A DNA stretch of 64,000 nucleotides from a virus (taxonomy: Duplodnaviria; Caudoviricetes): positions 18,354-82,353 of the IMG/VR virus record IMGVR_UViG_2932572697_000002; one strand, 5' to 3'. Made by a program: the position numbers and the translations under genes. The notes under the pieces are model-generated. The model ran no database searches. It was not told the DNA's origin and worked only from the letters and a program-made list of their open reading frames with translations. Shown piece by piece: positions 20,258 to 57,492 of this stretch. How positions within the stretch are numbered: position 1 is the first letter of the stretch; each line of letters starts with the position of its first letter.

Positions 20258-20299
20258 GAAGTCGATACTCCACTGAAGAATCGTTGGTCAGGAGTCGTA

Positions 20300-23680: not shown

Positions 23681-23724
23681 AGCTTCTAATCCAAGGAGCC
23701 TCAGTTATCCTTTGATTCGTAGGT
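23681..23724. promoter_or_regulatory. Late-gene palindrome copies upstream of portal
   Basis: TCCTTTGATTCGTAGGT (23708) and weaker AGCTTCTAATCCAAGGA (23681). Confidence 0.6.
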
Positions 23725-27126: not shown

Positions 27127-27137
27127 CATTCGAAGGT
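27121..27137. promoter_or_regulatory. Late-gene palindrome copy upstream of capsid
   Basis: GCTTGACATTCGAAGGT; right half matches consensus. Confidence 0.5.
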
Positions 27138-30624: not shown

Positions 30625-31188
30625 ATGGCGGTGGACCCCGACAACCTAATCCAGGGCCCGGCGACGCTGTACCGGGGTGCGTTCGGAGCCGCGGAGCCGG
30701 CCGACTCGGCGCTGAACTCGACGCCAGCCGCGTCCGCGTGGTCCGACGTCGGCGGTACGACGGACGGCGTGAAGCTCGCCATCGAGAACACCTACGGGGA
30801 GCTGGAGGTCGACCAGATCGTCGACCGTGTCGGCTCCCGCCTGACGAAGCGCAACACCAGCGTCGAGACGAACATGGCAGAGGTCACCCTCGGGAACCTC
30901 GCCTACGCCCTCAACGGCGGTACCACCGCGTCCGGTTCGGGCTACCAGACCTACGAGCCGAACGACTCGTCCTCAGCCACCCAGCCCGCCTACTCGGCCG
31001 TGCTGTTCGACGGGTGGGCCCCTGACCTGGCCCGCCGCCGGGTCATCGTCCGCAAGGTGCTGTCCGTCGACTCCATCGAGCTGGCGTACACGAAGGACAA
31101 GCAGACCGTCCTGAAGGTCAAGCTCCAGGCGCACTACGTCAGCCCGTCGGTAAAGACCTACAAGATCGTCGACGGCATCGTTCCGTAA
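30625..31188 (+). CDS. Major tail (tube) protein
   Basis: NLIQGPA.LY, W.DVGGTTDGV, LEVDQ. Confidence 0.85.
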   Translation: MAVDPDNLIQGPATLYRGAFGAAEPADSALNSTPAASAWSDVGGTTDGVKLAIENTYGELEVDQIVDRVGSRLTKRNTSVETNMAEVTLGNLAYALNGGTTASGSGYQTYEPNDSSSATQPAYSAVLFDGWAPDLARRRVIVRKVLSVDSIELAYTKDKQTVLKVKLQAHYVSPSVKTYKIVDGIVP

Positions 31189-40930: not shown

Positions 40931-41521
40931 GTGGACGAGAGAACCATAACCGAAATCAGTGAAGGGCTCGTTGGGGAAACCCCGACCTGGCAGGTGCAAA
41001 TGACAGACGTGGCGGGCAGAGGGCACGTACACGTCTTCCCGCAGGAAACCCTCGCCTGGCGCGCAGCCGAGTACGGCATCGACCCTACTGACACAGACAC
41101 CCTGCTCGACATCATCCTCCATGAGCCGTTCCTGCCTGACCTCAGCACACCCGAGGCGGCAGCCGCAGACCCGGCCGCCCGCACCGGGCTTAACGTCACC
41201 ACCCTGAACACCAAAGGGGCCAAGGTCGAGCCCGTCCAACTGCACAACGCACCAACCACGAAGGCGGCCCGTGACGCCCACCTGCTCCGCATCAACAACG
41301 TCAAGCAGGACCACCACGTTCAGGTCCCGGCAGGCAAGGGCGTGAAAGACCCCCGCGCTGCCATCAGGGGCAAGCTCATCGACCCGGGGCGCGTCGCGGA
41401 GCTCGCCGGATACGTGGACGCCATGAAACGACAAGCCCGAGGCGAAGCAGCCCGCACGACCCCCCGGTCCCGACCTGCCATGAACCCCGTACCTACGCTG
41501 CCGGAGGCGACCGATGCCTGA
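40931..41521 (+). CDS. Hypothetical tail-associated protein
   Basis: WRAAEYGID..LLDIILHEP; GTG start. Confidence 0.65.
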   Translation: MDERTITEISEGLVGETPTWQVQMTDVAGRGHVHVFPQETLAWRAAEYGIDPTDTDTLLDIILHEPFLPDLSTPEAAAADPAARTGLNVTTLNTKGAKVEPVQLHNAPTTKAARDAHLLRINNVKQDHHVQVPAGKGVKDPRAAIRGKLIDPGRVAELAGYVDAMKRQARGEAARTTPRSRPAMNPVPTLPEATDA

Positions 41522-42416
41522 GACCCCGACGCCACGCCTTGGGCTGCGGCGCCCCCTGAACGACGGCTCCGAGCTCGTCAACGTCCAAACCGACCTCAAC
41601 CAGAACGCCGACAAGCTCGACCTCGCCGCGGGCTTCCAGATCGTCACCAGCAGCACCCGGCCCAGCACCCCCTTCTCGGGCAAGGCCATCGCCGAGTCCG
41701 ACACCAGCTACCGCACCCACTTCTCCAACGGCACCGGGCCGGCCAGCGGATCATGGGTAGAGATCCCCAACTCCAGCGGCACGTTCGGATCAACCTTGAA
41801 GCTGGCAGCATCCGCCCAGCTCACCATCGGCGCGGACGTCAACCTCTACCGGTCGGCCGCCAACACCCTGAAGACTGACGACACCGTGATAGTCGGCGGC
41901 GACCTCAAGCTCGTCAACGGAACCACCACGTTCCGAAACGGGCTGTCTGCAGCCACTACCGTCGCCAACACGACCACGGAAACCAACCTCGCTACGATCA
42001 CCGCGCCAGCGAACGACCCCGTCGTCGGCGCCGTCTACAAGCTCACCGCCTGGGGGCGCATCTCCACCACGGGCACCCCGACGTTCACGCTGCGCACGAA
42101 GGTCGGATCGACCACGATCTCCACCCTCTACAGTGCCGCGACGGGGAGTGGCCTCGCCAACGCCCCCTGGACGGCGGAGCTGGAGCTGGCCGTTCCAGTG
42201 ATCGGCGCCGGCGGGACGTTCGCGCCGGTGTCCCGCACCAGCAGCAACATTGCTGCCAGCGGCACAACGGCGAGCGTCATCCTTGTCCCGGCAGCGGGCA
42301 CGATCGCCAACGACACGACAACATCCACGACGTGGGCGATCAGCGGTCAGTGGGGCACGGCAAGCGCCTCGAACACGGTGACGTGCCAGGGGTTCACGGC
42401 GGTGAGGCTGGCGTAG
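41514..42416 (+). CDS. Minor tail / fibre protein
   Basis: TPRLGL..P, LYRSAANTLKTDD; Thr/Ser-rich beta C-terminus. Confidence 0.75.
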   Translation: MPETPTPRLGLRRPLNDGSELVNVQTDLNQNADKLDLAAGFQIVTSSTRPSTPFSGKAIAESDTSYRTHFSNGTGPASGSWVEIPNSSGTFGSTLKLAASAQLTIGADVNLYRSAANTLKTDDTVIVGGDLKLVNGTTTFRNGLSAATTVANTTTETNLATITAPANDPVVGAVYKLTAWGRISTTGTPTFTLRTKVGSTTISTLYSAATGSGLANAPWTAELELAVPVIGAGGTFAPVSRTSSNIAASGTTASVILVPAAGTIANDTTTSTTWAISGQWGTASASNTVTCQGFTAVRLA

Positions 42417-42422
42417 CCGAGG

Positions 42423-42602
42423 TCAGCTCGCACCGAAGTTCGGCTCCGGCTCCGGCTCTTGGGCGGGGGCCTGCTGGTGGATCTGTGCTTCCAGGTCGAG
42501 GATGCGGGCTTCCAGCATGCTGTTCTTGTGGAACAGTTCAGCGGCCCGGGAGCGGTACACCTCAAGGGCCGACTCGTAGCTGACCTGCTTCGAAGGTTCC
42601 AT
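42423..42602 (-). CDS. Small coiled-coil protein (59 aa)
   Basis: MEPSKQVSYESALEVYRSRAAELFHKNSMLEARILDLEAQ; AGGA RBS. Confidence 0.55.
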   Translation of the reverse strand: MEPSKQVSYESALEVYRSRAAELFHKNSMLEARILDLEAQIHQQAPAQEPEPEPNFGAS

Positions 42603-42609
42603 GGTGTTC

Positions 42610-43230
42610 CTATCGGATGGTGGCGTCGCCGCGGTCGGGGAGGCCGCTGCTGTTGAGCCCGTGGTGGACCCAGGCCCAGGTGCGGCGGGGGATGTGGACG
42701 ATGTGGGCGCCGGCGTCGCGGCAGCCGATGGTGAAGTGCCAGTCTTCGCCGCCGCGGTGGCCGCCGACGGTGCTGTCCGGGGGCGGGTCCTGAAATCCGA
42801 CCCGTTGGGCGATGTCGGTGCGGACGAGGGTGGTGATGGTGGTCTGGTGGGGGGCGGCCGGGTTCCAGGGCTTGCCGAAGTGGCCGAGGGGGTCGTTCTC
42901 GGGCCAGGGGGTGCCGTCGCGGCGGTGGACCATGTAGTAGCTGAAGAGGTAGTCGGCTTTGTGGGCGCGGGCCCCGGCGGCGAGCACCTTGAGGTGTTCG
43001 GGGTACATCCAGTCGTCGCTGTCGAGGAAGGCGACCCATTCGGTGGTGACCTTCTCCAGGCCGCGCTGCCGGGTGGTGGCTGCTCCGAGCCCTTCCTTGT
43101 CGACCTCGATGATCAGATCGTTGGGGATCAGGTGCTGCTGCTCGACGGACTCGACTGCGCGGGCCAGCATTCCGTTCTGCACCCGGAACGGGTGGGCGGG
43201 GATCACCACGGTGATGTCAGTCGTCGTCAC
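42610..43230 (-). CDS. Glycosyltransferase family 2 (GT-A)
   Basis: ITVVIPA..WVAFLDSDD..GEDW. Confidence 0.88.
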   Translation of the reverse strand: MTTTDITVVIPAHPFRVQNGMLARAVESVEQQHLIPNDLIIEVDKEGLGAATTRQRGLEKVTTEWVAFLDSDDWMYPEHLKVLAAGARAHKADYLFSYYMVHRRDGTPWPENDPLGHFGKPWNPAAPHQTTITTLVRTDIAQRVGFQDPPPDSTVGGHRGGEDWHFTIGCRDAGAHIVHIPRRTWAWVHHGLNSSGLPDRGDATIR

Positions 43231-43480
43231 GGGCCGCCTCCGCCCGCATGCGGGTCTGCACGTAGTCGAGGAGCCCCATCACCCGGTGGTGAGGTACGGC
43301 TCCGCCGCCGTTCGGCAGGAGAGTTCCAACCTGGGTGATGCCGTCCCCGTCATCGTCGAACTGCTGCGACGCAGCGACGACGACCCACTCGATCGGGACG
43401 CCCTCGTAGCCTTCTAGCTCGCAGACCTCTTCGATGGCCGCTTCGAGCTTCCGGTACGCGGCCTGTTTCGCGTCGCTCAT
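43217..43480 (-). CDS. Hypothetical protein
   Basis: AGGAG RBS. Confidence 0.65.
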   Translation of the reverse strand: MSDAKQAAYRKLEAAIEEVCELEGYEGVPIEWVVVAASQQFDDDGDGITQVGTLLPNGGGAVPHHRVMGLLDYVQTRMRAEAARDDD

Positions 43481-43484
43481 CGGA

Positions 43485-43742
43485 TCACTCCTGCATGGAC
43501 GGTGTGTGGGTCATGCCGAGCCGCAGCACGGCCTCATCGTTGTGGGCATAGACGAAGCCGTCACATTCAACCTCGACGCCGTTGTTGTAGATGGCCTTGA
43601 TGCGGTAGTCCCGTTCGGCGTTCCAACGGATGCCGAGCGGGAACCTGACGGTTTCGCCTACTTGGAAGTACTCGGGGAAGCCGCGCTCTACCTGCTGCTG
43701 CCGGAGCAGGGCTTCGAGAGCAGTGAACGGATCCTCACTCAT
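43485..43742 (-). CDS. Hypothetical protein
   Basis: ATGA coupling; lower GC. Confidence 0.55.
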   Translation of the reverse strand: MSEDPFTALEALLRQQQVERGFPEYFQVGETVRFPLGIRWNAERDYRIKAIYNNGVEVECDGFVYAHNDEAVLRLGMTHTPSMQE

Positions 43743-44263
43743 CGCCTTACTCCTCGCGCCCAGGCATAGGCGTCTCCGGGATTGGCCCGGTACTCGACGT
43801 GCACGTCACGGAACAGGCTCTCCAGCGTCTCCCGGAGATCTTGCGGGGACACGTTCCGGTACCACTCCCCAGAGGCCGGGAGCGGAGCGCCAGCCACCCC
43901 ATGCTCTGGCCGTCCGTCCGAGGCGCAGGTAACGACCAGGAGCTCCGGGCCGCCCGGCTCCAGGGCCTCGGATGCGGTGTGCAGGACGAGGCGCCACGTC
44001 GGCAGGTGCTCCAGCACCTCCGTGCAGACCACCAGGTCGAACAGGCCTGCATCCTTGGGCCAGGGGAGGGTGGCGTCGTGGACGATGTCGATGCCCGTAC
44101 CAGTCTCGATGTCGGTGCCGGTCCATACCGTGTTGGGCAGGTGGGTGCGGATCGTGCCGTTGATGTCCCGGCCACCGAGGTCCAGGACCCGCCACGGGTC
44201 CGTGCGGCAGATCCCGGCCAGGTCGAGCATGCGGCCGACGGCGTCGTGCGCTTCAGGGTGCAT
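43739..44263 (-). CDS. Class I SAM-dependent methyltransferase
   Basis: VLDLGGRDING..FDLVVCTEVLEH. Confidence 0.85.
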   Translation of the reverse strand: MHPEAHDAVGRMLDLAGICRTDPWRVLDLGGRDINGTIRTHLPNTVWTGTDIETGTGIDIVHDATLPWPKDAGLFDLVVCTEVLEHLPTWRLVLHTASEALEPGGPELLVVTCASDGRPEHGVAGAPLPASGEWYRNVSPQDLRETLESLFRDVHVEYRANPGDAYAWARGVRR

Positions 44264-44284
44264 CAGTGCTTCCCGCCTCTGGTG

Positions 44285-44788
44285 CTACTGGACATGGGTC
44301 CACGTCCTTCCGGCGCTGATGTGGGCGACGATGCTCCTGCTGATGCCGAACCGCTGCGCGATGTCCAGTTGGCGGCGGCCCACCGCGAGGAGGTCACGGA
44401 TCTGGCGAACCATCGCCTCGTCGATGCGGGCACGCCCGTTGCGGACGCCCGTGTTATCTGTGCCGTGCCCGTGGCGGTCGGCGTAGTTTTCCTCGGGGGT
44501 GCCCCATCGCAGGTTGGTCAAGACGTTGTGCTGGGGGTTGCCATCGAGATGGCGACAGACCATTCCGTCCGGCCGCGGTCCCACGAAGGCTTCCAGCATC
44601 AGGACGTGGACCTTGGTCTGTCGTCCGCGCCCTATCTTGATCTGGGAGTAGCCGTGGACGATGGCCGGGGTGAGAATGCGAGGAGCGCTGGTCGGGTGGC
44701 CTTGCCGGTTCCTGTAGCTGCGGACGCGGCCTCGGTTGCTCACCTCATACCCCAGGTGTCCGGGAAGGGGTTTCCATACCTCGTTCAC
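44285..44788 (-). CDS. NUMOD4/HNH homing endonuclease with C-terminal HTH
   Basis: EVWKP..YEVSNRGRVRS, VCRHLDGN..N..NLRWGT..EN. Confidence 0.9.
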   Translation of the reverse strand: MNEVWKPLPGHLGYEVSNRGRVRSYRNRQGHPTSAPRILTPAIVHGYSQIKIGRGRQTKVHVLMLEAFVGPRPDGMVCRHLDGNPQHNVLTNLRWGTPEENYADRHGHGTDNTGVRNGRARIDEAMVRQIRDLLAVGRRQLDIAQRFGISRSIVAHISAGRTWTHVQ

Positions 44789-45477
44789 CACGGCGTCTTC
44801 CCCCACTTCGCTCGGAACGTTTCCATGTCTCGCCCGGCCTGCGCCTCAAGTTCGGGGCGTTCCTGCATGGACCCGTTGGGGCGCAGGTGCTGAACGGGGA
44901 TGCCGGGGACGAGGAGTGCGCCGCCCGCCTCGCGCGCTCTCCAGTCCAGATCGTCATCGCTCGCCCACCACGCCATCGACTCGTCGAGCTGCAGCCCGGC
45001 CTCACCGCGCAGCATGTACGCGTAGCCCGTAATCCGCTGTCGCAGGTCCACCGGTTCGGCCTTCGTGTGCAGGATCTGCTGCTGACCGCCGAACTGGTCC
45101 GGGTAGGCCAGGATCGCCGTCGTGGAGCGCATGGCCTCAGATAGCGCATCGACCCAGCCTGACGGCACGATCACATCCGAGTTGAGGACAACCACGTCGC
45201 AGCGCTCCCGGCCCGTGAACTGCCGGGAGTGCTCCGCCAGCTCCAAGCCGATGTTCCACAGGAGGCTGATGTTCGGCGGATCCAGGTCGACCAAGGCGGA
45301 CCCGACGAACGTGTTGCCCTCTCCCATCGGCCACTGCTCCGGGTCGATGGGCGGCACGCTGCCGTTGTCGATGATGTACACGGCGTCGACCTGGTCGAGT
45401 ACCGAGTTCACGCAGTCCCGCACCATGTCGTGCCGGTTGCGGGTCGGGATGACGGCTACCCGCCACGGGCGGTTCAC
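44785..45477 (-). CDS. Glycosyltransferase family 2 (GT-A)
   Basis: VAVIPTRNR..IIDNGS..VVLNSD..WASDDDL. Confidence 0.85.
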   Translation of the reverse strand: MNRPWRVAVIPTRNRHDMVRDCVNSVLDQVDAVYIIDNGSVPPIDPEQWPMGEGNTFVGSALVDLDPPNISLLWNIGLELAEHSRQFTGRERCDVVVLNSDVIVPSGWVDALSEAMRSTTAILAYPDQFGGQQQILHTKAEPVDLRQRITGYAYMLRGEAGLQLDESMAWWASDDDLDWRAREAGGALLVPGIPVQHLRPNGSMQERPELEAQAGRDMETFRAKWGKTPW

Positions 45478-46127
45478 TGGCCCGCCCAGACGGTGGTGTG
45501 CGCGTCGGCGGTCTCGGCCCGCAGCGGCGCGTAGTAGTAGCAGGCCAGCGATCTGCGCAGGTGGTTGCCGACGACAGGCTCGGGGTGCCCGTGCCACGAC
45601 GTCTCGCCGGTCGCGAAGATCACCGTCCGGTTCCACGCCGGAACGACGGCCACCTCGCGCTGCTCGCCGAGGTACAGGGTGCCGCCCCACGTCGCCTCCC
45701 AGTCCCTCGACAGAAAGACGAGCATGTTGATGCGGCGCTCCAGCGGCAGCGTCGGGTGGACGTTGAAGTCGACGTGGGACGCGAGCCGACCGCCTTCTCC
45801 GGTCTCGTGCATGCCGCCGCCGATGTCGTCTGCGGTGAGCGGGCTGATGCCGGTCAGCAGCTCCAGCATCCGGCAGGCTTCGGGGGAGCGGGCCGCGTCG
45901 AAGAAGCCCCGGGTTGCCTCCCCCCAGACGCGGGAGTCTCCGGCCTTCTTACCGCGTTCCTTCTCATCCGGGTACGTGATCCACCTGGGGTCGTTGGCGG
46001 CGGGGAACTCGGCGTCGATGCTCGCGAGGAGCTGGTCGGGCCACATGTTGTCGACGACCAGGTGCGGGAACGGCTCGGCCGCAGCGAACCGGGCAGCCTG
46101 CTCGGGGCCGAGGGTGGCGAGCTTCAT
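45474..46127 (-). CDS. 2OG-Fe(II) oxygenase, prolyl-hydroxylase-like
   Basis: PFPHLVVDN, GGGMH, HVD, WGGTL, P.WNR.VIF, SWHG, RRSLACYYY. Confidence 0.88.
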   Translation of the reverse strand: MKLATLGPEQAARFAAAEPFPHLVVDNMWPDQLLASIDAEFPAANDPRWITYPDEKERGKKAGDSRVWGEATRGFFDAARSPEACRMLELLTGISPLTADDIGGGMHETGEGGRLASHVDFNVHPTLPLERRINMLVFLSRDWEATWGGTLYLGEQREVAVVPAWNRTVIFATGETSWHGHPEPVVGNHLRRSLACYYYAPLRAETADAHTTVWAGQ

Positions 46128-47161
46128 CGGACTGCCTCCGTAGCCGGAAGTCCCAGCCATTCGGGGTGCCGCAGCGTCCACTCCACCGTGCGCCGCAGCG
46201 ACTCCTCCAGGCTCAGCGGCGCCTGCCACCCGGCGGCGGCGAGCTTGCTGCCGTCGAGCGCGTACCGGAGGTCGTGGCCAGGCCGGCTGGAGTGGAAGTC
46301 GACGAGGTCGAGCTTCGGTTCGCCAGCGCCCATGAGGTTGGCGAGCAGGTGGACCATCTCGATGTTGTCGACCTCCCGCTCCCCGACGATGTGGAACCGG
46401 GACGGGCGGTCGAAGTCGCCGTACTGCTGCGGGCGGTGGTTGCGGGCGAGCCACAGCCAGGCGTCAGCCAGGTTCCGGGCGTGGAGGTAGAACCGGCTGC
46501 CGGGCCGGCCGTCGGGGGAGACGTGGACGGTGGCCGTCTCGCCGCGGAGGATGGCCCGCATGGTCTTGGGGATGAACTTCTCGGTGTCCTGCTGCTCGCC
46601 GAGGATGTTCATGGTGTTGGTGATGACGACGGGGACGCCGTAGGTCCGCCAGTAGGTGAAGCACACGGCTTCCTGGGCGGCCTTGCTGGCGGAGTAGGGG
46701 TTGGAGGGGGCGATGGCGTCCCATTCGCGGTGCTCGTACCCGTCGGGGGCGGGCCCGTAGACCTCGTCGGTGGACATCTGGAGGACGAGGGACGGCTTGG
46801 CGTGGCGGGCGTAGTCGAGGACGTTGGTGATGAGCCGGACGTTGTTCTCGATGAACGGGCCGGGCTGGTCGATGCTGCGGTCAACGTGGGATTCGGAGGC
46901 GACGTTGAACAGGTAGTCGACCTTCCCGAATCGGGCTGCGGTGACGGGGTCGATGGGGGCGGTGAGGTCGCAGTAGACGACGTCGACGCGGTCCCACCAT
47001 TCGGGGTTGGTTTCGAGAGCGGAGGCTATGCGCTTGGGGACGCCCTTGTGCCGGAACGTGACGGGGAGGGTGACGGTCCAGTCGGTGTTGGTCATGAGGT
47101 GGCGCAGGACGTGGCTGCCGACGAACCCGCCGCCACCGGTGAGCAGTACGTGCTTGGTCAT
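46124..47161 (-). CDS. NDP-glucose 4,6-dehydratase (RmlB-like)
   Basis: TGGGGFVGSH, ASESHVDRSI, STDEVYG, YSASK, RPGHDLRYALD. Confidence 0.9.
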   Translation of the reverse strand: MTKHVLLTGGGGFVGSHVLRHLMTNTDWTVTLPVTFRHKGVPKRIASALETNPEWWDRVDVVYCDLTAPIDPVTAARFGKVDYLFNVASESHVDRSIDQPGPFIENNVRLITNVLDYARHAKPSLVLQMSTDEVYGPAPDGYEHREWDAIAPSNPYSASKAAQEAVCFTYWRTYGVPVVITNTMNILGEQQDTEKFIPKTMRAILRGETATVHVSPDGRPGSRFYLHARNLADAWLWLARNHRPQQYGDFDRPSRFHIVGEREVDNIEMVHLLANLMGAGEPKLDLVDFHSSRPGHDLRYALDGSKLAAAGWQAPLSLEESLRRTVEWTLRHPEWLGLPATEAVR

Positions 47162-47166
47162 CGGGT

Positions 47167-47613
47167 TCACCGCACCTTGAAGAGGATGGGGAGGGCGAGC
47201 TTGAGGTGCTTGAGCCGTGACCAGCGGGCCTCGGGCTCGACGCGGCAGTCCATGTTGAGGACGCAGTGGCGGAAGAACCGCCACTGGCCGTGCAGGACGT
47301 TCGGCAGGTTGTGGAGCTTGGGAAATCGCCCCTGCCGCTTACCGGTGCCCTTGCACTGGGGGCAGGTCACGAAGTGCCAGCCGTCGTCGGACGGCGAGGC
47401 AGCCTCCGCCTCACGCCAGAGCGCCACGAGCTCGGGGTCGGTCTCGTCCTGCGACCTGACTCCGTCGGGCCCGCGCCGCCCAGCTGCCGCAGGGGTGTCG
47501 ATGAAGACGGGCGCGAAGCCGACGCCTTCACATTGGCCTCGGCAGACGGTGAGGAGACTGGGCCGCTCGATGCCGAGGGCGTCGTACCGGTCGGTGAACT
47601 CGATGCTGGTCAT
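47167..47613 (-). CDS. Hypothetical Zn-finger protein
   Basis: CRGQCEGVG..CPQCKGTG; GAAAG RBS. Confidence 0.65.
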   Translation of the reverse strand: MTSIEFTDRYDALGIERPSLLTVCRGQCEGVGFAPVFIDTPAAAGRRGPDGVRSQDETDPELVALWREAEAASPSDDGWHFVTCPQCKGTGKRQGRFPKLHNLPNVLHGQWRFFRHCVLNMDCRVEPEARWSRLKHLKLALPILFKVR

Positions 47614-48602
47614 CCGAGGATCGCTTTCTCCCAGAGGGGTGCCCGGCGGCTGATGGTGTGCTGGCGGGCTTGTGTGCGCCCGGACATGCCCATTTCGATG
47701 CGCATGTCGGGGTCGGCGGCGAGGGCGCGCAGGCAGGCCCCCCATTCGTGGTCGCGGCGCACGAGGTAGCCGGTGAGGCCGTCTTGGACGTAGTCCTCGT
47801 AGGGGCGGACGGCGGAGGTGACGATGGGGATGCCGAGGGCCCCGGCCTCGATGGCCTTGAGGGCGGACTTGGACTGATTGAAGACGTGCGGGCGGAGCGG
47901 GGCGATCCCGACGTGGTAGTCGATGGTTCGCAGGAACTCGTCGACGCTGGGCACCCACGGGGTGAACCGGGCCTGCTGCCGGGGGGCTCGCATCCAGGAG
48001 GCGTAGTCGTTGCCGATGATGTGGAGTTCGGTGCCCTGGTTGCGCTTGAGGAACTGGCGGAGTTGGTCGCCGACCTGGTCGAAGTCCATGTTGTGGGTTG
48101 CGCTGCCGCCCCAGCCGATGGTGAGGGTGCCGTCATCACGCTGCTGCGGCTGGTGGTCGATCAGCCAGTCGGGGACGGCATTGGGCACGATGTGCACGTT
48201 GGGGTTCCACTGGCGGACGATGTCGGCGAGCGGTTCGGTGGTGACGGTGACGGCGGCTGCGACTTCGATGTTCCGCTGAAGATTGGCCCGAATTTCGGGC
48301 CGGGCGAAGAACGCGTGCGCGGCGGGGCTGCTAGCGTCGATGTTCCAGAGGTCGTCGTCGATCTCGTAGATCAGCTTCCTGCCCTGCTTGGCGAGGGCCT
48401 GCCACATGGTGCTGGGGCCGGGGTTGCAGACCCGCTGCCCGACGATGACCGTGTTCGGGTTGTCGCGGACGGACTGTGGCATGCGGAGCCCGTGGCGGAC
48501 GGTGTACCCAAGCCCGACGAGGCCCTGCATCGGGAGCTGGACGCGGTAGTAGCCGCAGCCTGATTCGTCGGCCTGCCAGCCGAAGACGTCGAGGTCAGCC
48601 AT
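47610..48602 (-). CDS. Glycosyltransferase (GT-B, GT4-like)
   Basis: GCGYYR, YEIDDDLW, IGWGGSATH, FNQSKSALKAIEAGALGIP. Confidence 0.88.
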   Translation of the reverse strand: MADLDVFGWQADESGCGYYRVQLPMQGLVGLGYTVRHGLRMPQSVRDNPNTVIVGQRVCNPGPSTMWQALAKQGRKLIYEIDDDLWNIDASSPAAHAFFARPEIRANLQRNIEVAAAVTVTTEPLADIVRQWNPNVHIVPNAVPDWLIDHQPQQRDDGTLTIGWGGSATHNMDFDQVGDQLRQFLKRNQGTELHIIGNDYASWMRAPRQQARFTPWVPSVDEFLRTIDYHVGIAPLRPHVFNQSKSALKAIEAGALGIPIVTSAVRPYEDYVQDGLTGYLVRRDHEWGACLRALAADPDMRIEMGMSGRTQARQHTISRRAPLWEKAILG

Positions 48603-48879
48603 CGGAGGCCACCACGGAGCCGTCTGCGGGCGGTGGCGCAAGCGCATAGCGGTCGGGCTGTGAGGCCTCGCTGACGATGCGTGGTATCTGCCGGGCCAGA
48701 TCGATCACGGCCTGGAGTGCGGCATGAACATGCGGCTGCTCATCGGCCCTGCCGTGCAGGAGGTCGTCCACCGAGGTCGGGTCGGGGCATCCGATGCGGG
48801 CGCAGGTGACGTGCCCGCCCTCACCGAGGAAGAGGCTGCTGCCACCGCAGGCCAGGCAACGGCCCTGAACATCAGGCAT
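48595..48879 (-). CDS. Hypothetical Zn-binding protein (DUF6085-like)
   Basis: VQGRCLACG..SLFLGEGGHVTC..CPDP. Confidence 0.65.
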   Translation of the reverse strand: MPDVQGRCLACGGSSLFLGEGGHVTCARIGCPDPTSVDDLLHGRADEQPHVHAALQAVIDLARQIPRIVSEASQPDRYALAPPPADGSVVASDG

Positions 48880-49486
48880 CGGGGGCCTCCTCGGAATTGG
48901 GGCCGCGCCCACCCTGCGGTATCTGCTGAAGGGCGCGGATGCGCGCGAGGTTGGCCTCCGTGACTCCGAACGGCCGGAACCGGTCGCACGTCGCGCACTG
49001 CCCGTAGCTGCGACCGTTCAGCGCGGGCGATTCGCAGACGCATGTGGAATGAGCGCGGTCGACCGAAGAACAGTCGCGGTGGAAGAGCCCCTTCTCGCCC
49101 TGCCACCAGCGGGCGCGCGGCCCGTCCCACGAGTGGGAGACGTTGACGCAGTCGCCCTTGACGGAACGGCCACCGCACCAGGCGCAGCGGGTGAGGAGGC
49201 GGCGTCGCCACTGCTGGAGCGGATGCACCTGCAACCGCCAGTGGTGGACGTGGAAGCGCCACGAGCGGCCCGGGTAGATCGAGCACGTTGTGGAGTCGTA
49301 GCCGGATGGGTCCCGATGCCACACGGTGACCAGTGGCGGGAAGTAGAGGCCGCGCCCGGCGAACACCCAGAAGGCACCGTTGGCCTGCCAGCGTGTTCCG
49401 CTGCGGGCTGCCTGCTCGGTCTTCCAGGGTTCGGCCGTGGGCCACGGCCGACGGATCTCGAAGGCGACTGTCAGCGGATCCTTCAT
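48872..49486 (-). CDS. Hypothetical Cys/His/Trp-rich protein
   Basis: AGGAG RBS; multiple CxxC. Confidence 0.65.
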   Translation of the reverse strand: MKDPLTVAFEIRRPWPTAEPWKTEQAARSGTRWQANGAFWVFAGRGLYFPPLVTVWHRDPSGYDSTTCSIYPGRSWRFHVHHWRLQVHPLQQWRRRLLTRCAWCGGRSVKGDCVNVSHSWDGPRARWWQGEKGLFHRDCSSVDRAHSTCVCESPALNGRSYGQCATCDRFRPFGVTEANLARIRALQQIPQGGRGPNSEEAPDA

Positions 49487-49601
49487 GCGCGCTCCTGTGC
49501 GGGGTGCGGGTGGGTGCGGGTTGCTGTGGCGGGGCCACGGACCCGCACGGCCGAAGCCCCGCCACCGGATCCGAGCCAGGACCCTAACCCAGAGAGTACC
49601 T

Positions 49602-49656
49602 GTTACCTGCGATTCGTAGGTTAAATGCAAGCTTGTGGCTACGATTTGAAGGTAAC
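49602..49656. promoter_or_regulatory. Paired late-gene palindromes between divergent glycan and lysis operons
   Basis: ACCTGCGATTCGTAGGT (49605) and GGCTACGATTTGAAGGT (49637). Confidence 0.7.
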
Positions 49657-49676
49657 GGCTTTCGAGGGAGACCCGC

Positions 49677-50633
49677 ATGGCCACACCACTAACCGCCGAC
49701 CGACTGCTCAAGGCCCTGCGCGACGAAGGCCTCACCGTCATCGAGCACCGCAGCTGGCGTACCAACAACCGAAACCACAAGGGGCCTTGGGGTCCGGCGC
49801 ACGGCGTGATGATCCACCACACCGTGACGTCGGGGACCGCGTCGTCGGTGGAGCTCTGCTACAACGGTCACTCCGCCCTCCCCGGCCCCCTCTGCCACGG
49901 CGTCATCGACAAGGCCGGAGTCGTCCACCTTGTCGGCAACGGGCGCACCAACCACGCCGGACTCGGCGACGCAGACGTCCTCCGCGCCGTCGCCGCCGAA
50001 GCCAAGACCCTCCCGCCCGACAACGAGGCCAACACCGACGGCAACCGGCACTTCTACGGCTTCGAGTGCGTCAACCTCGGCAACGGGCAGGACCCCTGGC
50101 CCGCCGCCCAGCTGCTCGCGATCGAGCGGGCCGCCGCCGCACTGTGCCGGGCACACGGCTGGTCGGAGCACTCCGTCATCGGGCACCTGGAATGGCAGCC
50201 CGGCAAGATCGACCCGCGCGGCTTCACCATGGCGTCCATGCGCGACCGGATCGGAAAGTGCCTCACCCCGGACCCGGCGCCCACCAAACCGCCCGCCACG
50301 AAGCCCCCCGCCTCGACGATGCCGAACCCGCCGAAGGCGCCGGTCGTCGACCTCTCCAAGCTCATCGCCGCCGCCCGCTCCAACCCCAAGGCCAAGGGCA
50401 CGCCCGTCACCTACACCGGGGTCCGCATCGTCGAAGCCGCCCTCGTCGACGCCGGCTACCTCGCCAAGCCGCTCCTCGACGGGCACTTCGGCACGGCCAC
50501 CGTCACCGCCTACTCCCGCTGGCAGAAGTCCAAGGCCGGCGGCGGCTACACGGGGAAGGCCGCCGACGGCATCCCCGGCAAGGACTCCCTCACCCGACTC
50601 GGCAAACGCGCCGGGTTCACCGTCACCCCCTGA
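49677..50633 (+). CDS. Endolysin: N-acetylmuramoyl-L-alanine amidase + peptidoglycan-binding domain
   Basis: IHHT, LCH, NHAG, GFE, VIGH.EW..KIDP; DG.FG..T..AY..WQ. Confidence 0.92.
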   Translation: MATPLTADRLLKALRDEGLTVIEHRSWRTNNRNHKGPWGPAHGVMIHHTVTSGTASSVELCYNGHSALPGPLCHGVIDKAGVVHLVGNGRTNHAGLGDADVLRAVAAEAKTLPPDNEANTDGNRHFYGFECVNLGNGQDPWPAAQLLAIERAAAALCRAHGWSEHSVIGHLEWQPGKIDPRGFTMASMRDRIGKCLTPDPAPTKPPATKPPASTMPNPPKAPVVDLSKLIAAARSNPKAKGTPVTYTGVRIVEAALVDAGYLAKPLLDGHFGTATVTAYSRWQKSKAGGGYTGKAADGIPGKDSLTRLGKRAGFTVTP

Positions 50634-50653: not shown

Positions 50654-51025
50654 ATGAAGCTGTTCGGCCGCGAGCCCGTCGTCATCCTCGGCGCGATCGC
50701 CGTGCTCCTCAAGCTCCTCGCCGGCTACGGCATCCAGGTGTCCGAGACGCAGCAGACCCTCGTCAACACGTTCCTTGCCTGCGCCGTCGCCGTCGCCTCC
50801 GCCGTCATCCTCAAGAACGGCGCCCTCTACGCCGCCCTCCTCCAGGCCGCCTCCGCAGGTCTCGCCCTCTTCGCCGGCTTCGGCCTCGACATGACCGTCG
50901 AGCAGCAGGCCGGGTGGATGGCGTTCGTGTCCGCGGTCCTCGTCGTCATCGAGCGGCCCGCCGTCGAAGCCCCCGTACCGACCACCCGCGTCGAGCAGGT
51001 CAGCCCCGTCAAGAACACCGCCTGA
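50654..51025 (+). CDS. Holin-like membrane protein
   Basis: FGREP start, 4 TM; after endolysin. Confidence 0.75.
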   Translation: MKLFGREPVVILGAIAVLLKLLAGYGIQVSETQQTLVNTFLACAVAVASAVILKNGALYAALLQAASAGLALFAGFGLDMTVEQQAGWMAFVSAVLVVIERPAVEAPVPTTRVEQVSPVKNTA

Positions 51026-51535: not shown

Positions 51536-51837
51536 TGGGCACCTGGGACAGGCTCTTGAACGTCATCACCTCGGCCATCACCGCCACTACGGGCCTGACG
51601 TTCATGGTCACCTATCACCTCCTCGCTCCCTGGTGGCGGTCCGAGACCGGGCGCCACCTCATGGGCTTCGGAGCTGCCGTCACCGCGCTCAGCGCGTACA
51701 CCGTTGCGATCACGGCCTGGCCCGAGTTCTGGCCGCTCCGCCTCGTGCGGACGATCGTCGTCCTCGCCATCGCCGCCCTGTTTATCCAGCGGACCGTCAT
51801 GGTCATCCGCGCCCAACGCCACAAGGAGACGGACTGA
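51532..51837 (+). CDS. Putative holin (3 TM)
   Basis: PWWRSETGRHLM; 3 hydrophobic helices. Confidence 0.7.
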   Translation: MMGTWDRLLNVITSAITATTGLTFMVTYHLLAPWWRSETGRHLMGFGAAVTALSAYTVAITAWPEFWPLRLVRTIVVLAIAALFIQRTVMVIRAQRHKETD

Positions 51838-53963
51838 TGGCCTTCCCCGACGGCCTGCCCACCACCCTGGTCAGCTACGAGGCGGCGAGCCCGGTCGGCG
51901 GTGGCCCGGCGCAGGGGACGGTCACTTTCGAGCTGACCGTGGACGCCATCTCCCTGACCGACAGCGGCATCGTCTACACCGGCAGCGGCACCTACTCCTT
52001 CAACGGAGACGGGCAGCTCGTCGACGACGCGGGCACCCCAGGCGTCCGGCTCATCCCGAACGACCTGCCCTACGCCAACCCGCAGAACTCCCGGTGGCTC
52101 GTCACCGACCGCATCGCCGGGGCACCGGTCCGCTCCTACTACATCAGCCTCTCCGTCGACCAGCCCGAAGCGGACCTCGGCAAGATCCAGCAGATGGACG
52201 CCGGACAGCCCGAGTACACCGCGGTCATTGGCCCCAAGGGCCTCTCCGCCTACGAGCAGTGGCTGGCCGAGGGCAACACCGGCACCGAGGATGACTTCCT
52301 CGCCAGCCTGGTCGGCCCGCCCGGTTCCGAAGCGAACGCCCAGGCGTATACGGACGATGCCCTCAGCACCGAGATCGCACGGGCCAATGCGGCCTACGAT
52401 CCCGCTGGTGCCGCCACGGCAGCCCGTATCGCCGCCATCAGCACCGCAGCGAGCGACGCCACCAGCAAGGCCAACAACGCCCAATCTGCGGCGATCACCG
52501 CAGCAAGCTCCGACGCCACGACGAAGGCCAACGCCGCGCAGACCGGCGCCGTCAGTGCGGCTGCCACCTCTGCCTCCACTCTGTACCTGCCGAACGCCAT
52601 CCAGACCGTCGACGCCTACCTCGCCGGCGCCACCCCGTCGTCCCCACGGTTCTTCGGCCACCGCGGCGGCGGCATGGTCCGCCCCGAGCACACCCTGGTC
52701 GGCTACCGGGCGTGCGCCGCCATGGGGTTCGCCCTCGAAGTGAGCGCCAACGTGGACGCGTCCGGCGAGCTGTGGTGCCTCCACGACACCACCCTGGACC
52801 GCACCACCTACCAGACGGGGAACCTCAACACCTACACGACCGAGGAGGTCAGCCAGGCCGTCCTCACCAACGGGCGGACCCTCCTCGGCCCCGGGTGGAC
52901 CGATCAACGGATGGTGCCCCTGCGGCAGGTACTCGACGAGTTCCTCGGGAAGATCCCCATCCTGCTGGAGCCCAAGGGCAACGACGCCGTCGTACCGACC
53001 CAGACGCTCCTCGACACGTACTACCCGCACGCCCCCAGGTCTGTGATCTGGAAAGCCCACATCGGCACCCTGTCCCTGCCGTGGGCGAAGGCCCGCGGCT
53101 ACCGGACGTGGGTGTACCTCGACTCCAACACCACCGACGCCACCATGGACGGCAAGGACGCCATGGTCGACTACTGGGGCGTCTCCACCACCTTCACCGA
53201 CCTGCGGATCACCCAGGTGAAGGACCGCGGCAAGCCCGTCTTTGCCTGGCCCGTCTACCGGCGCAGTCAGGTCGCCCGGCTCACCGGGCTGGGTGTCGTC
53301 GGCATGATGTCGTCCGACCCCCGGTACGTGTCCACCAGCACCCCTCAGCGCACGTTCAGCCGCTGGGGGCTCGCCGTCAAGGAATCCGGCGGCACCCCCA
53401 CTCTGGACTACGACACCGCCTACGCCCTCGTTCTCGGGGAAGGTGCAGACGCCGGGTGGGTCAGCATCAACGCCCTCCCGAACCAGTCCTACGGGCTCGG
53501 CACCTACTCGCCGATCGTGGGGTCCGCGGCCGGCTACCGGATCGCGTTCGACGTGAAGTACAAGGTGCTGCCCGGGGCGACAATCCATGGTGGCTACTAC
53601 TTCGGCAAGGCATCGGACGACGCCTACCGGTTCGGCACGGCGAACTCCACCGGCGGGTACCACGTGGTGATGCGGGCCTCCGGGGACATGCAGCTGTACC
53701 GGCACACGGCCGGGGTCACGTCCGGCACGCAGATCGGATCGACCATCGCTACTGCGGCGCCTGTCGCGGACACGGCCATGTCGTTCCAGATCGACGTTAC
53801 CCCGACCACGGTCGAGCTCCGCCGCACCGACAGCACCGGGTGGACCACCGGGCCGATCGCGGACACCACCTACCGGGGCGGATACCACGGGCTGTCCAAC
53901 GGGTCGATCACCGACCTCGCCACCCGCCCCTACTGGCGGACCCTGATCATCACCCAGCTCTGA
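51837..53963 (+). CDS. Tail-spike-like protein with glycerophosphodiester phosphodiesterase (GDPD) domain
   Basis: N-terminal virion-anchor-like region, GLSAYE.W..GN.GTE.DFL.SL motif, GHRGGG..PEHT, HD.TLDRTT, EPK, SDP. Confidence 0.85.
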   Translation: MAFPDGLPTTLVSYEAASPVGGGPAQGTVTFELTVDAISLTDSGIVYTGSGTYSFNGDGQLVDDAGTPGVRLIPNDLPYANPQNSRWLVTDRIAGAPVRSYYISLSVDQPEADLGKIQQMDAGQPEYTAVIGPKGLSAYEQWLAEGNTGTEDDFLASLVGPPGSEANAQAYTDDALSTEIARANAAYDPAGAATAARIAAISTAASDATSKANNAQSAAITAASSDATTKANAAQTGAVSAAATSASTLYLPNAIQTVDAYLAGATPSSPRFFGHRGGGMVRPEHTLVGYRACAAMGFALEVSANVDASGELWCLHDTTLDRTTYQTGNLNTYTTEEVSQAVLTNGRTLLGPGWTDQRMVPLRQVLDEFLGKIPILLEPKGNDAVVPTQTLLDTYYPHAPRSVIWKAHIGTLSLPWAKARGYRTWVYLDSNTTDATMDGKDAMVDYWGVSTTFTDLRITQVKDRGKPVFAWPVYRRSQVARLTGLGVVGMMSSDPRYVSTSTPQRTFSRWGLAVKESGGTPTLDYDTAYALVLGEGADAGWVSINALPNQSYGLGTYSPIVGSAAGYRIAFDVKYKVLPGATIHGGYYFGKASDDAYRFGTANSTGGYHVVMRASGDMQLYRHTAGVTSGTQIGSTIATAAPVADTAMSFQIDVTPTTVELRRTDSTGWTTGPIADTTYRGGYHGLSNGSITDLATRPYWRTLIITQL

Positions 53964-54790: not shown

Positions 54791-55576
54791 CTAGGCGTCG
54801 CGTTTTGCGATGGTGAGCTTCTCCTTGGCGGACATGTAGACGGGGAAGTCAGTGGCCTTGTTGATGTGGGTGTCGACGGCCCCGGACGGGGCCTTGACCT
54901 GCGCGACCGTTTCCACGGTGACGGCACTGCCGGTGTCGAGGCAGATGGTGTCGCCCACGCGAAGATCGGCGGCGGCGATCTGTTCGGTGGCGAGGCGGGG
55001 CTGCTCGCCCACGGTGTGCGGTCGGGGCCGGAACGAGTGGATGCTCGCGCCAGCTGCGGTACGGGCGCGCCGGGCGGCGGCTTCCCGACTGACCGGAAGA
55101 CCCCTGTTGTCGGAGATCAGAGGCCCGGCATCCCGGCCAGCCGCAGCTTCGCCGACCAACTGGGCTGTGCGGTCGCTGATGGGGATACGACGGGGGTCGG
55201 TCTCCAACTTCGGGTGGTCGACGTCGACGACACCCTCATCGAGGTCCACGTCGCGGACATCCAGGGACAGGACGTGGCCAAGACGTAGGCGCTCGTTGGC
55301 CATCAGGGCCCACATGGCCCGGTGGGCTACGGGGATGCTGTCGTCGGCGAGGAGTCGGTCGACCTGCTCGGCGGGCATGACTTCTGCGGTGAGGTCGTTG
55401 CGGGCGCCGCGACCAGGCCGACTGTTGTAGGCGGCGTCGGCGGCGTCCTCGTCGTAGAGCTTGGCCCCGGTGTCGACGTCGCGGTCGACGGCGTCGACGT
55501 CGGCGAGGATGCGGCGGGCGGTGGCGTCGCGAAGGCCCCAGCGGGCGGCGGCTTGGCGGGCGGTGATGTTCGGCAT
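54791..55576 (-). CDS. HTH-like region fused to truncated tyrosine-recombinase catalytic domain
   Basis: LRLGHVLSLDVRDVDL..K..IPIS..IHSFR, but no recognisable box II His/Tyr. Confidence 0.7.
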   Translation of the reverse strand: MPNITARQAAARWGLRDATARRILADVDAVDRDVDTGAKLYDEDAADAAYNSRPGRGARNDLTAEVMPAEQVDRLLADDSIPVAHRAMWALMANERLRLGHVLSLDVRDVDLDEGVVDVDHPKLETDPRRIPISDRTAQLVGEAAAGRDAGPLISDNRGLPVSREAAARRARTAAGASIHSFRPRPHTVGEQPRLATEQIAAADLRVGDTICLDTGSAVTVETVAQVKAPSGAVDTHINKATDFPVYMSAKEKLTIAKRDA

Positions 55577-56225: not shown

Positions 56226-56473
56226 AGGTGAAGCGAATCGATCTGGACGACGAAGAGATGCCGGAGCGCGTGCTCGTGGAGCTCTCTCATGACGAAGCCG
56301 TCTACCTGGCTCTGCTGCTCGGCCATCAAAACGGCAACGACATGAACGGAGTCACGCCCGGCGGGTCGCGCCTTGGCGGCGCGGTCTACGAGGGGCTGTC
56401 GGGCGGCCTCTTCAATCGGTTCTATGAGGACGGCGTTGACGGAGCAGCCGCTGCGATGCGAGCGCGCCCGTGA
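56222..56473 (+). CDS. Hypothetical protein
   Basis: ATGA coupling, GGAGG RBS. Confidence 0.7.
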   Translation: MKVKRIDLDDEEMPERVLVELSHDEAVYLALLLGHQNGNDMNGVTPGGSRLGGAVYEGLSGGLFNRFYEDGVDGAAAAMRARP

Positions 56474-57492
56474 CCGACGCCCTCGCCCCGCACCAGCCGG
56501 ACGCCACCCCCGCCGTCTACGACGCTGCGACGCTCGCCGTCCTCGCCGCCATGGAAGAAGCCGCCGAGAAGCACCTCGACGCCATCCGTCCCCACAACAC
56601 CAAGCGCGGCTACGCCAACGACTGGGCACTCTGGTCGGAGTTCCACGGGTGGCTGGGGGAGCGGACCGGACAGGCCCTGCCGCTGACCGCCGTCACCAAG
56701 GGCACGCTCGTCGGGTTCGTCGTCTGGCTCGACACCATCAAGCTCGCCGCACCCAACTCGATCGACCGGCGCATCACCGGGGTCACCGTCACCGCCCGGA
56801 ACGAGCACGGCGTCGAAGTCCCCAAGGCTGCGACTGTCGCCGCCCGGCAAGCCCTCAAGCCCTTGAAGAACGACCCCGAACGCATGGCGCGCGGCAGAGG
56901 CAAAGCCGCCGCCGTCACCCCCGAACAACTCCGCCAGATGAACGCCGCCGTCACCGACGGGGTCACCGGACTCCGCGACCGCGCCCTCTGGCTCATGGCC
57001 TTCGGCATCGCCGGGCGCTCCGCCGAAGTCGCCGCCCTCCGCGCCGACACCATCACCTACGTCAGCCAAGGACTCGAAGTCCACGTCCCCGCCGTCAAAG
57101 GCCGCCCACCCCGCGACGTCGTCGTCCACTACGGCAAGAACGTCGACACCTGCCCAGTCCGCGCCTGGCTCACCTGGAGGGCCGCCGCAGGCATCACGTC
57201 GGGCCCCGCCTTCCTGCCCATCACCGTCCACGGCCACCTCGGCAACCACACCCTCTCCCCGGAAGCCGTCCGCGAGATCATCGCCCGCAACGCCGAGAAG
57301 GCAGGCATCGCCGTCCGCCTCACCGGCCACAGCATGCGAGCCGGGTTCATCACCACCAGCCGCAAGGCCGGGAAGCGCGAAGAGAAGATCCGCGAGCAGT
57401 CCGGGCACGCCGAAAACAGCCCCGCCTTCTGGGGGTACATCCGCGAGGCCGACAAGTGGACCGACGCCGCGAGTGAGGACATCGGGCTCTGA
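56470..57492 (+). CDS. Cre-like tyrosine recombinase (resolvase/integrase)
   Basis: NTKRGY..DW, RDRAL..GRSAEV, K, GHSMRAG, SGH, Y. Confidence 0.9.
   Translation: MTDALAPHQPDATPAVYDAATLAVLAAMEEAAEKHLDAIRPHNTKRGYANDWALWSEFHGWLGERTGQALPLTAVTKGTLVGFVVWLDTIKLAAPNSIDRRITGVTVTARNEHGVEVPKAATVAARQALKPLKNDPERMARGRGKAAAVTPEQLRQMNAAVTDGVTGLRDRALWLMAFGIAGRSAEVAALRADTITYVSQGLEVHVPAVKGRPPRDVVVHYGKNVDTCPVRAWLTWRAAAGITSGPAFLPITVHGHLGNHTLSPEAVREIIARNAEKAGIAVRLTGHSMRAGFITTSRKAGKREEKIREQSGHAENSPAFWGYIREADKWTDAASEDIGL

Follow-up and report, generated by a model that had tools for sequence, protein, structure and literature searches.

We analyzed a candidate glycan-building operon in a tailed-phage genome (Duplodnaviria; Caudoviricetes), that of a Streptomyces prophage with the IMG/VR record IMGVR_UViG_2932572697_000002. 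The record (82,353 bp) is classed by IMG/VR as a provirus, 85% complete, and the window used here is its right-hand 64 kb (64,000 nucleotides; all positions below are those of the window). Between a tail-fibre-like gene and the endolysin gene, 13 minus-strand genes form a compact operon from 49486 down to 42423, which we call the cassette; it encodes three glycosyltransferases (GTs), a sugar-nucleotide dehydratase, a methyltransferase (MT), an oxygenase (OXY), an endonuclease and six small open reading frames (ORFs), sm1 to sm6. The G+C content of the record is 68.5%, and that of the cassette stretch (0.676-0.689) is equal to it. Since such a high G+C content produces many spurious ORFs, the frames of the minus-strand genes were picked by third-position G+C (GC3), and families were assigned by Pfam, PHROG and NCBIfam scans. 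In gene order, from 49486 to 42423 and preceded by the upstream region, the features are as follows.

49487-49676: divergent intergenic region, with a GC-rich hairpin region, an inverted repeat and two plus-strand motif copies
48872-49486, minus: sm5, first ORF of the operon, 204 amino acids (aa), basic, Cys/Trp-rich; called by GC3 and ribosome-binding site (RBS); no family match in Pfam, PHROG or NCBIfam
48595-48879, minus: sm4, 94 aa, zinc-ribbon-like DUF6085 (PF19563, E 2.6e-6; phrog_4125)
47610-48602, minus: GT-B, GT4-like glycosyltransferase, 330 aa, near-core (PF13692, E 4.2e-11; phrog_7162, E 2.6e-70)
47167-47613, minus: sm3, 148 aa, Cys-rich (6 Cys); no family match in Pfam, PHROG or NCBIfam
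46124-47161, minus: RmlB-like NDP-hexose 4,6-dehydratase of the short-chain dehydrogenase/reductase (SDR) family, 345 aa, optional booster (PF01370, E 4.7e-42)
45474-46127, minus: OXY, 2-oxoglutarate-Fe(II) oxygenase of the P4H/PHD/OGFOD1 type, 217 aa, core (PF13640, PF13661)
44785-45477, minus: GT2b, divergent GT-A glycosyltransferase, 230 aa, core (PF00535, N-terminal 32 residues only)
44285-44806, minus: HNH/NUMOD4 homing-type endonuclease (PF13392, PF07463; phrog_59, E 1.8e-40)
43739-44263, minus: MT, class I S-adenosylmethionine-dependent, UbiG-like (O-methyltransferase-like), 174 aa, core (PF13489, E 2.2e-9; phrog_32762)
43485-43742, minus: sm2, 85 aa; called by GC3; no match in the PHROG family scan and no counterpart found in relatives
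43217-43480, minus: sm1, 87 aa, acidic (phrog_4307, E 3.5e-18)
42610-43230, minus: GT2a, family 2 glycosyltransferase of GT-A fold with a DSDD motif, 206 aa, optional (PF00535, E 1.4e-11; phrog_14775, E 4.3e-39)
42423-42602, minus: sm6, final gene of the operon, 59 aa, acidic, coiled-coil-like; called by GC3; no match in Pfam, PHROG or NCBIfam

Neighboring genes overlap by 4-22 nucleotides (nt) or are separated by gaps of at most 21 nt, and the cassette is a coherent, translationally coupled operon of intact enzymes. An earlier note on this DNA had listed the six enzymes, their strand and their flanking genes, and had described most of the genes as overlapping or abutting. GC3 calls and family scans bear this out at the coordinates above, although the list had overlooked the HNH endonuclease and the six small ORFs. 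The underlying idea of a coherent, phage-borne glycan cassette is likewise supported.

The most distinctive member is OXY. Its sole Pfam matches are PF13640 (53.4 bits, E 5.2e-14) and PF13661 (32.4 bits, E 1.3e-7), against a cut-off of 27 in each case. All 38 relatives in an alignment retain H118, D120, H179, R191 and S193; we take the first three to be the HxD...H iron triad and the Arg/Ser pair (RxS) to bind 2-oxoglutarate. Among proteins of solved structure the best relative is OGFOD1 (E 4e-8), followed by prolyl 4-hydroxylases and PHD2, whereas Tet_JBP (PF12851) yields no match to OXY at E <= 0.01 and none across the provirus at E <= 0.1. OXY is thus P4H-like rather than TET/JBP-like, a choice that the earlier note had left between the two: it shares family match, triad and RxS with the P4H/PHD/OGFOD1 hydroxylases and consists of a single 217-aa domain.

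This assignment bears directly on one alternative, in which OXY would hydroxylate a base of the phage DNA and the GTs would add sugars to it, along the lines of TET/JBP-plus-GT systems and T-even glucosylation. The combination of oxygenase, GT and methyltransferase superficially resembles phage TET/JBP-plus-GT clusters, all the cassette enzymes are cytoplasmic, and T4-type DNA glucosyltransferases have the GT-B fold. A possible cytosine-5 DNA methyltransferase-like protein, recognized by eye only from an N-terminal motif, also lies elsewhere in the provirus. However, OXY matches PF13640/PF13661 and solved protein prolyl hydroxylases instead of Tet_JBP or AlkB, the provirus has no match to Tet_JBP or to a thymidylate-synthase-type hydroxymethylase, and MT is UbiG-like, not of the DNA-methylase type. 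Furthermore, we know of no DNA modification in which a 4,6-dehydratase and three GTs build a methylated oligosaccharide, although no search of the literature was aimed at this point. We consider DNA hypermodification very improbable.

A search for fused forms of OXY returned three longer proteins, all of which were set aside. P0121, apparently an OXY-GT2 fusion, reads as a frameshift or miscall: the C-terminal third of OXY is missing, and the protein crosses the 4-nt overlap of the two genes in an alternative frame that precedes GT2b. P0122 is a eukaryotic transcript. P0123, which joins part of OXY to an SDR through an Arg/Pro-rich stretch, is a single sequence and maybe a read-through product, and we counted it as an adjacency only.

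GT-B is 44% identical to KimJongPhill gp6 and about 28-31% identical to proteins of phAPEC8-type coliphages. GT2a is 50-52% identical to its counterparts in phages Zuko and KimJongPhill and 38-40% identical to proteins of the Arthrobacter phage Atuin type. GT2b shows a conserved N-[DS]-D motif in an alignment of 11 relatives, always adjoins OXY or MT, and has GmaR as its best solved match (E 0.003, N-terminal segment only). Clusters of GT2b look-alikes in the Atlas are 65-100% viral, and Atlas searches gave only the same families. The best solved relatives of MT are UbiG O-methyltransferases (E 1e-4).

For the RmlB-like protein, TIGR01181 is by far the best NCBIfam model (E 8.6e-60), yet its score of 202.5 bits lies below the equivalog cut-off of 365.1. 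The translation shows STDEVYG and YSASK, in which we presume the Thr-Asp-Glu (TDE) and YxxxK motifs that define 4,6-dehydratases. The protein therefore resembles the RmlB of dTDP-L-rhamnose synthesis in model and motifs, and differs from it by the sub-cut-off score and by being dispensable in close relatives. The earlier note had proposed a self-contained pathway with its own deoxy-sugar donor. This does not hold: the 82-kb provirus gives no match to RmlA (PF00483) or RmlC (PF00908), although, of 14 genomes, the first model was positive in 14 and the second in 11, and the RmlB-like gene is absent within 10 kb in five of six actinobacterial loci. Without RmlA or RmlC, the pathway would lean on host sugar metabolism.

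Which members matter most can be read from relatives. Among phage records, OXY is found only in Zuko, KimJongPhill and two uncultured marine viruses (six records, four of them duplicates of the two phages). Zuko (host S. griseofuscus) and KimJongPhill (host S. mirabilis), which PMC10690885 places in cluster BR, carry OXY, GT2b, MT and GT2a contiguously, at 50-59% identity, and genes 4-6 of KimJongPhill encode an RmlB-like protein, a second MT and GT-B. IMG/VR yields 10 loci. Two of these, L004 and L005, are syntenic proviruses with the same succession of tail fibre, cassette and endolysin, and in L005 the six cassette enzymes stand back to back. L006 and L007 have OXY, MT and GT2b, with GT-B as well in L006; five of the IMG/VR loci hold OXY, GT2b and MT, with MT beside OXY. 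Species-representative genomes add 59 loci, six of them actinobacterial (Streptomyces, Actinosynnema, Saccharothrix, Amycolatopsis). In these six, OXY and MT are present throughout (6/6), GT2b and GT-B in five each, GT2a in three and the RmlB-like gene in one. The latter is absent from L016, L018-L021 and L006; L016 has an OXY 89-90% identical to ours, yet no RmlB-like gene within 10 kb.

DNA comparison of the closest relatives further shows that the stretches with sm1/sm2 and with sm5 vary. Based on these presence/absence counts and DNA comparisons, the functional core is OXY, GT2b and MT, usually with GT-B, and the RmlB-like protein and GT2a are optional. The survey of neighborhoods in other prophages, which the earlier note had named as a check, finds the OXY, GT2b and MT core kept in widely separated hosts and in phages of different lifestyles. 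Arthrobacter phage Atuin (194 kb; L002, 105929-118929) has relatives of the RmlB-like protein (58%), GT-B (30%) and GT2a (40%). This phage also has a further GT and a nucleotidyltransferase, but no oxygenase and no capsid of the lineage described below. Hence the optional half of the cassette also travels alone.

The genes around the cassette are those of a normal siphophage late region, as judged from PHROG scans, which also detect tape measure and minor tail protein genes. The principal features are:

20300-20833: gene at the terS position, PHROG label 'Rnase E'
22081-23643: terL
23743-25290: portal
27262-28167: major capsid protein
30625-31188: major tail protein
41514-42416, plus: tail-fibre-like protein, Ser/Thr-rich, 300 aa, weak PHROG match only
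49677-50633, plus: endolysin, amidase type (phrog_880, E 2.8e-73; phrog_9752, E 6.2e-29)
50654-51025: holin, 3' of the endolysin
51837-53963, plus: second tail-fibre protein, 708 aa, with a phosphodiesterase-type middle part (phrog_16641, phrog_17803)
54791-55576, minus, and 56470-57492, plus: two tyrosine-recombinase-like genes

The two tyrosine-recombinase-like genes stand near each other, 5-8 kb past the cassette.

We compared the proteins of the provirus with those of KimJongPhill (64.5 of its 82.5 kb, E < 1e-5). Only 12 head-tail proteins and six proteins of the cassette are common to the two. The head-tail proteins include terL (47% identity), portal (36%), capsid (53%), tail tube (48%), tape measure (33%) and connectors; over the 64.5 kb compared, the fibres, the minor tail proteins and the products of lysis, replication and regulatory genes of the provirus have no match. 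In KimJongPhill the cassette is split, and the RmlB-like, MT and GT-B genes lie directly 5' of, and co-oriented with, a gene annotated as RNase E (in the terS position), terL, portal and capsid. Sites thus differ between phages: the proviral cassettes sit between fibre and lysis genes, and that of L006 lies beside the terminase.

The same association holds across records. Twelve of the 13 records with OXY, GT2b and MT have capsids of a single lineage, the exception being a 57%-complete fragment. In five actinobacterial assemblies of about 8-11 Mb, the sole capsid gene of this type is on the same contig as OXY, 17-24 kb away. The capsid lineage is rare: of 201 Streptomyces genomes sampled, five have it, and two have OXY (the centre genome and one with a distant, 40%-identical type). 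Furthermore, KimJongPhill and G004, a 95%-complete record, have no match to a tyrosine or serine recombinase, which argues that the cassette serves lytic growth as well, in phages that apparently do not integrate.

This linkage to the head-tail module is the strongest new evidence that the cassette acts on the virion. Decoration of the virion, as the earlier note had proposed, is still the best single reading, if an unproven one: it agrees with the single head-tail lineage in 12 of 13 records and with the presence of the cassette in phages that have no integrase match. We hold it possible, at somewhat less than an even chance, that the cassette is the cytoplasmic glycan builder of one lineage of Streptomyces-group siphophages and would decorate virion proteins during assembly, with the capsid and/or the tail tube as the most likely acceptors. 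Host nucleotide sugars would be used, topped up towards 6-deoxyhexose by the 4,6-dehydratase where it is present; GT2b, GT-B and, where present, GT2a would assemble a short glycan, which MT would O-methylate. OXY would hydroxylate either a Pro/Lys side chain, as the attachment site, or a sugar of the glycan, two substrates that our data do not separate. In this scheme, we infer which sugar is used and what accepts it, as well as the succession of the reactions and the timing of expression. A more specific version, in which OXY hydroxylates Pro or Lys of a virion protein (capsid or tail tube), GT2b starts the glycan at that residue, GT-B and GT2a extend it with deoxyhexose, MT caps it and the whole travels as a mobile cassette following one head-tail lineage in temperate as well as lytic phages, is doubtful.

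Mycobacteriophages provide the closest parallel. Freeman et al. reportedly described, in 2023, virion glycosylation operons in Che8, Corndog (gp35-38) and Myrna, and the glycans are said to sit on C-termini. Protein sizes are suggestive: 194, 289, 230 and 206 aa in Corndog versus 174, 330, 230 and 206 aa in the cassette. According to PMC11256854 and PMC12363180, phage operons of GTs and an O-methyltransferase glycosylate mycobacteriophage capsids, a recent discovery made so far in mycobacteriophages only, and glycosylation shields the particles from antibodies. Relatives of Corndog gp38 are stated to be essential for capsid glycosylation (PMC12363180), and GT and MT genes of other actinobacteriophages are read likewise in PMC13313380 and PMC4351075. 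As described in these citing papers, Che8/Corndog-type systems and the cassette have in common soluble GTs and an O-methyltransferase in or beside actinobacteriophage virion genes. The cassette differs in adding a conserved P4H-type OXY and an optional 4,6-dehydratase, in lying on the opposite strand in the proviruses, and in a capsid that does not have a Ser/Thr-rich C-terminal tail. Moreover, mycobacteriophage glycosylation is experimentally supported, whereas that by the cassette is putative.

OXY is the part that has no counterpart in known phage glycosylation systems. To our knowledge, glycosylation linked to hydroxylated amino acids is confined so far to eukaryotes and giant viruses, and a literature search found no phage case; nor did it find a paper describing this cassette. 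Chlorovirus PBCV-1 has a multi-domain protein with GT and methyltransferase activities, viral sugar dehydratases and a viral prolyl 4-hydroxylase, and mimivirus L230 is a hydroxylase-glycosyltransferase. Giant viruses thus resemble the cassette in having their own GTs, 4,6-dehydratase, methyltransferase and an oxygenase of the P4H family or lysyl-hydroxylase type, acting in the cytoplasm on virion proteins. They differ by their eukaryotic hosts, and the likeness is drawn at the level of described functions; we know of no evidence that the PBCV-1 hydroxylase belongs to the capsid glycan pathway.

Several observations weigh against a virion target. The capsid alignment shows no insertion, Ser/Thr tail or residue set specific to cassette-bearing phages, and a single column separates cassette-bearing from cassette-free capsids. 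In BLASTP of the cassette proteins against Corndog gp35-38, no hit is better than E 0.3, the PHROG families of the two enzyme sets differ, and hhalign against the Corndog enzymes reaches a probability of 0.3-4%, no better than the GT2a control. In the proviruses, the cassette opposes the late genes and lies near the lysis and integrase end, the classic place for lysogenic-conversion genes. The late-gene motif upstream of the cassette faces the endolysin, and the copy that faces the cassette, with two mismatches, is over 115 nt away from the first start codon. In three loci, a distant relative of OXY adjoins Wzt (ABC transporter), or RmlA and RgpF, that is, cellular polysaccharide genes. Finally, a prophage in genome G063 with a 75%-identical capsid has no match to OXY, GT2b or MT in its corresponding 20-kb slot (tblastn), and the genome has no oxygenase match at E <= 1e-20. 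A profile search for GT2b in five genomes had no positive control, and the absence of GT2b is taken from the tblastn search of the G063 slot. That slot holds a different minus-strand sugar operon instead (L086, 4634-12367; G063:C12:110000-129999).

Two related comparisons gave no acceptor. A cassette-specific capsid Pro, seen in a first alignment, was rejected, as the G063 capsid has that Pro and the G063 slot is devoid of OXY, GT2b and MT. Comparison of the tail tube with that of KimJongPhill revealed nothing telling.

The G063 operon encodes a GT-B (33% identity), an SDR epimerase, an HNH protein and several unknown proteins, and is situated between a tail fibre gene and putative lysis genes. 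Its HNH gene (L086:9260-9826) is different from that of the cassette. The presence of another operon in this position suggests that the slot is a variable locus for sugar genes beside the variable end of the fibre; among relatives, the C-terminal half of the tail-fibre-like protein (41514-42416) differs. A variable slot would also fit a modification of the host that is linked to the receptor.

Such a modification forms the main rival explanation. In it, the enzymes would act at the inner face of the membrane on a lipid-linked wall glycopolymer or a host glycoprotein; the target would be of the receptor type recognized by the phage's own fibres, and its modification would block superinfection or the loss of progeny on debris. 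Prophage TarP and the P22 gtr operon offer analogues, and the P22/SfX gtrABC and S. aureus TarP genes share with the proviral cassette a location by a tail-fibre or spike gene, proximal to the integrase and on the opposite strand. Besides this orientation and position and the different sugar operon of G063 next to a variable fibre C-terminus, the phosphodiesterase-type second fibre (51837-53963) suggests a teichoic-acid-like, phosphodiester-linked receptor. The weak best matches of GT2a (TuaG, PglI and 5tze, the latter titled only 'Glycosyl transferase'), all far under cut-offs, and the Wzt, RmlA and RgpF neighbors of OXY relatives point the same way. However, hydrophobic segments of the membrane type are absent from all 13 cassette proteins (maximal 19-residue score of 1.43, versus 2.3-2.8 in holin-type controls), and the operon contains no transporter, flippase or polyprenol-linked transferase; Pfam families of the GtrA (flippase), GtrB (bactoprenol GT) and GtrC type are not found among them. 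The cassette also differs from Gtr/TarP-type conversion by its occurrence in phages that have no integrase match, with part of it there at the front of the structural operon, and it tracks the head-tail module, whereas KimJongPhill has no fibres or minor tail proteins in common with the provirus over the 64.5 kb compared. Modification of the host envelope is a serious contender that we nonetheless consider rather unlikely.

The upstream region was central to the earlier suggestion that the cassette is co-regulated with virion genes. An inverted repeat with 18-nt arms occupies 49602-49656, and the claim was that the same palindrome precedes terS, portal and capsid. The window has no second copy of the exact arm; the sites have in common a core of 10-11 nt, written either as ATTYGWAGGT (four matches versus 0.07 expected) or as GATTYKWWGGT (four versus 0.11 expected). 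Jointly, these define five sites: at 20247 before the terS-like gene, at 23714-23724 before portal, at 27128-27137 before capsid, and at 49611-49621 and 49643-49653 before endolysin. All five copies are on the plus strand, resemble GATTCGTAGGT and lie partly inside dyads. The portal copy lies 22 nt before the start codon of its gene, and the proximal endolysin copy 23 nt before that of the endolysin. Both L004 and L005 conserve the region, and the distance between the proximal copy and the RBS of the endolysin gene does not vary; L005 keeps the endolysin-facing copies only. Orientation, spacing and conservation in L005 indicate that the motif belongs to the plus-strand late genes, and thus co-regulation of the cassette with virion genes is not upheld.

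The site before the terS-like gene is part of an inverted repeat with 21-nt arms (20242-20287) and has no divergent gene, from which we conclude that the dyad is a property of the site and no sign of two-way promoters. The motif may serve this phage group as a late operator or promoter element, and the dyad is perhaps the operator of a dimeric regulator. A GC-rich nested hairpin (49504-49572), within what is presumably the 5' leader of the operon, is conserved in L004 and shows apparently paired changes in L005, with GCGGTGGGGC/GCCCCACCGC replacing the GTGGCGGGGC/GCCCCGCCAC of the window. The energy of this hairpin is no better than that of shuffled sequences (z = -0.51), and a scan for promoters and terminators found no promoter-like site and nothing above chance.

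The wider family of OXY raises a further question about its substrate. In phages, OXY is always linked to GT2b and MT; elsewhere, it is sometimes found in cellular polysaccharide loci, which raises the possibility that its substrate is a sugar and not a protein. Distant relatives (28-44% identity) are spread over many phyla, in neighborhoods mostly unrelated to each other. We surveyed 30 of 53 such loci (the GC3 filter lost the OXY ORF in 23) and scanned 101 of their 106 neighbor ORFs, leaving out one very long and four short ones. The commonest families were GT2 (5/101), Wzt_C (three) and NTP_transferase (two), a weak enrichment in glycan functions. An AT-rich marine viral contig, L011, combines an OXY relative (35-36%) with a GT8, an RmlB-like SDR and two methyltransferases. 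Together with the polysaccharide-locus neighbors, this set suggests that OXY may work on a deoxy-sugar glycan and not on a protein side chain.

The heterogeneity of these neighborhoods, with only about 5 of 101 neighbors in GT2, has also to be set beside another possible role of the cassette, that of modifying a different cytoplasmic target: a glycosylated small molecule, or a host protein that would be hydroxylated and glycosylated for host takeover. A ribosomal protein or a translation factor would be an example of such a host target, as with OGFOD1 and PPHD; the best solved relative of OXY is OGFOD1, the ribosomal-protein prolyl hydroxylase, and the capsid bears no acceptor signature. On the other side, OXY strictly adjoins GT2b and MT, the cassette goes together with the head-tail module, and Pfam and NCBIfam scans reveal in the operon no scaffold-building genes of the polyketide synthase or nonribosomal peptide synthetase type. 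We regard a target of this kind as improbable.

The HNH endonuclease is not part of the sugar pathway: it lies in a 545-bp insertion (44270-44814) private to this provirus. L004, L005, L016 and KimJongPhill do not have it, and their GT2b and MT genes directly adjoin. Homing endonucleases appear to target the cassette repeatedly. The small ORFs show uneven conservation. sm3 (insertion 47163-47606) is private to this provirus, and GT-B and RmlB abut in L004 and L005; sm1 is present in L016 and absent at the DNA level from L004 and L005; sm4 is partly kept in L004 and L016; and sm5 has a relative in L020 (51%) and is not kept at the DNA level in L004. sm6 and the tail-fibre gene are convergent, with stops 6 nt apart, and small ORFs of like pattern occupy the position of sm6 in L005 and G063 (by eye, not by BLAST).

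If decoration of the virion is true, the cassette would represent an independent, non-homologous solution to virion glycosylation in Streptomyces-group phages. Should OXY make the acceptor, hydroxyproline- or hydroxylysine-type glycosylation would exist in the bacterial world; should it act on a sugar, this would give a new role to a widespread, uncharacterized branch of PF13640, found also in O-polysaccharide and rhamnan loci. The same cassette core is carried by cultivable relatives that have no integrase, the phages Zuko and KimJongPhill.

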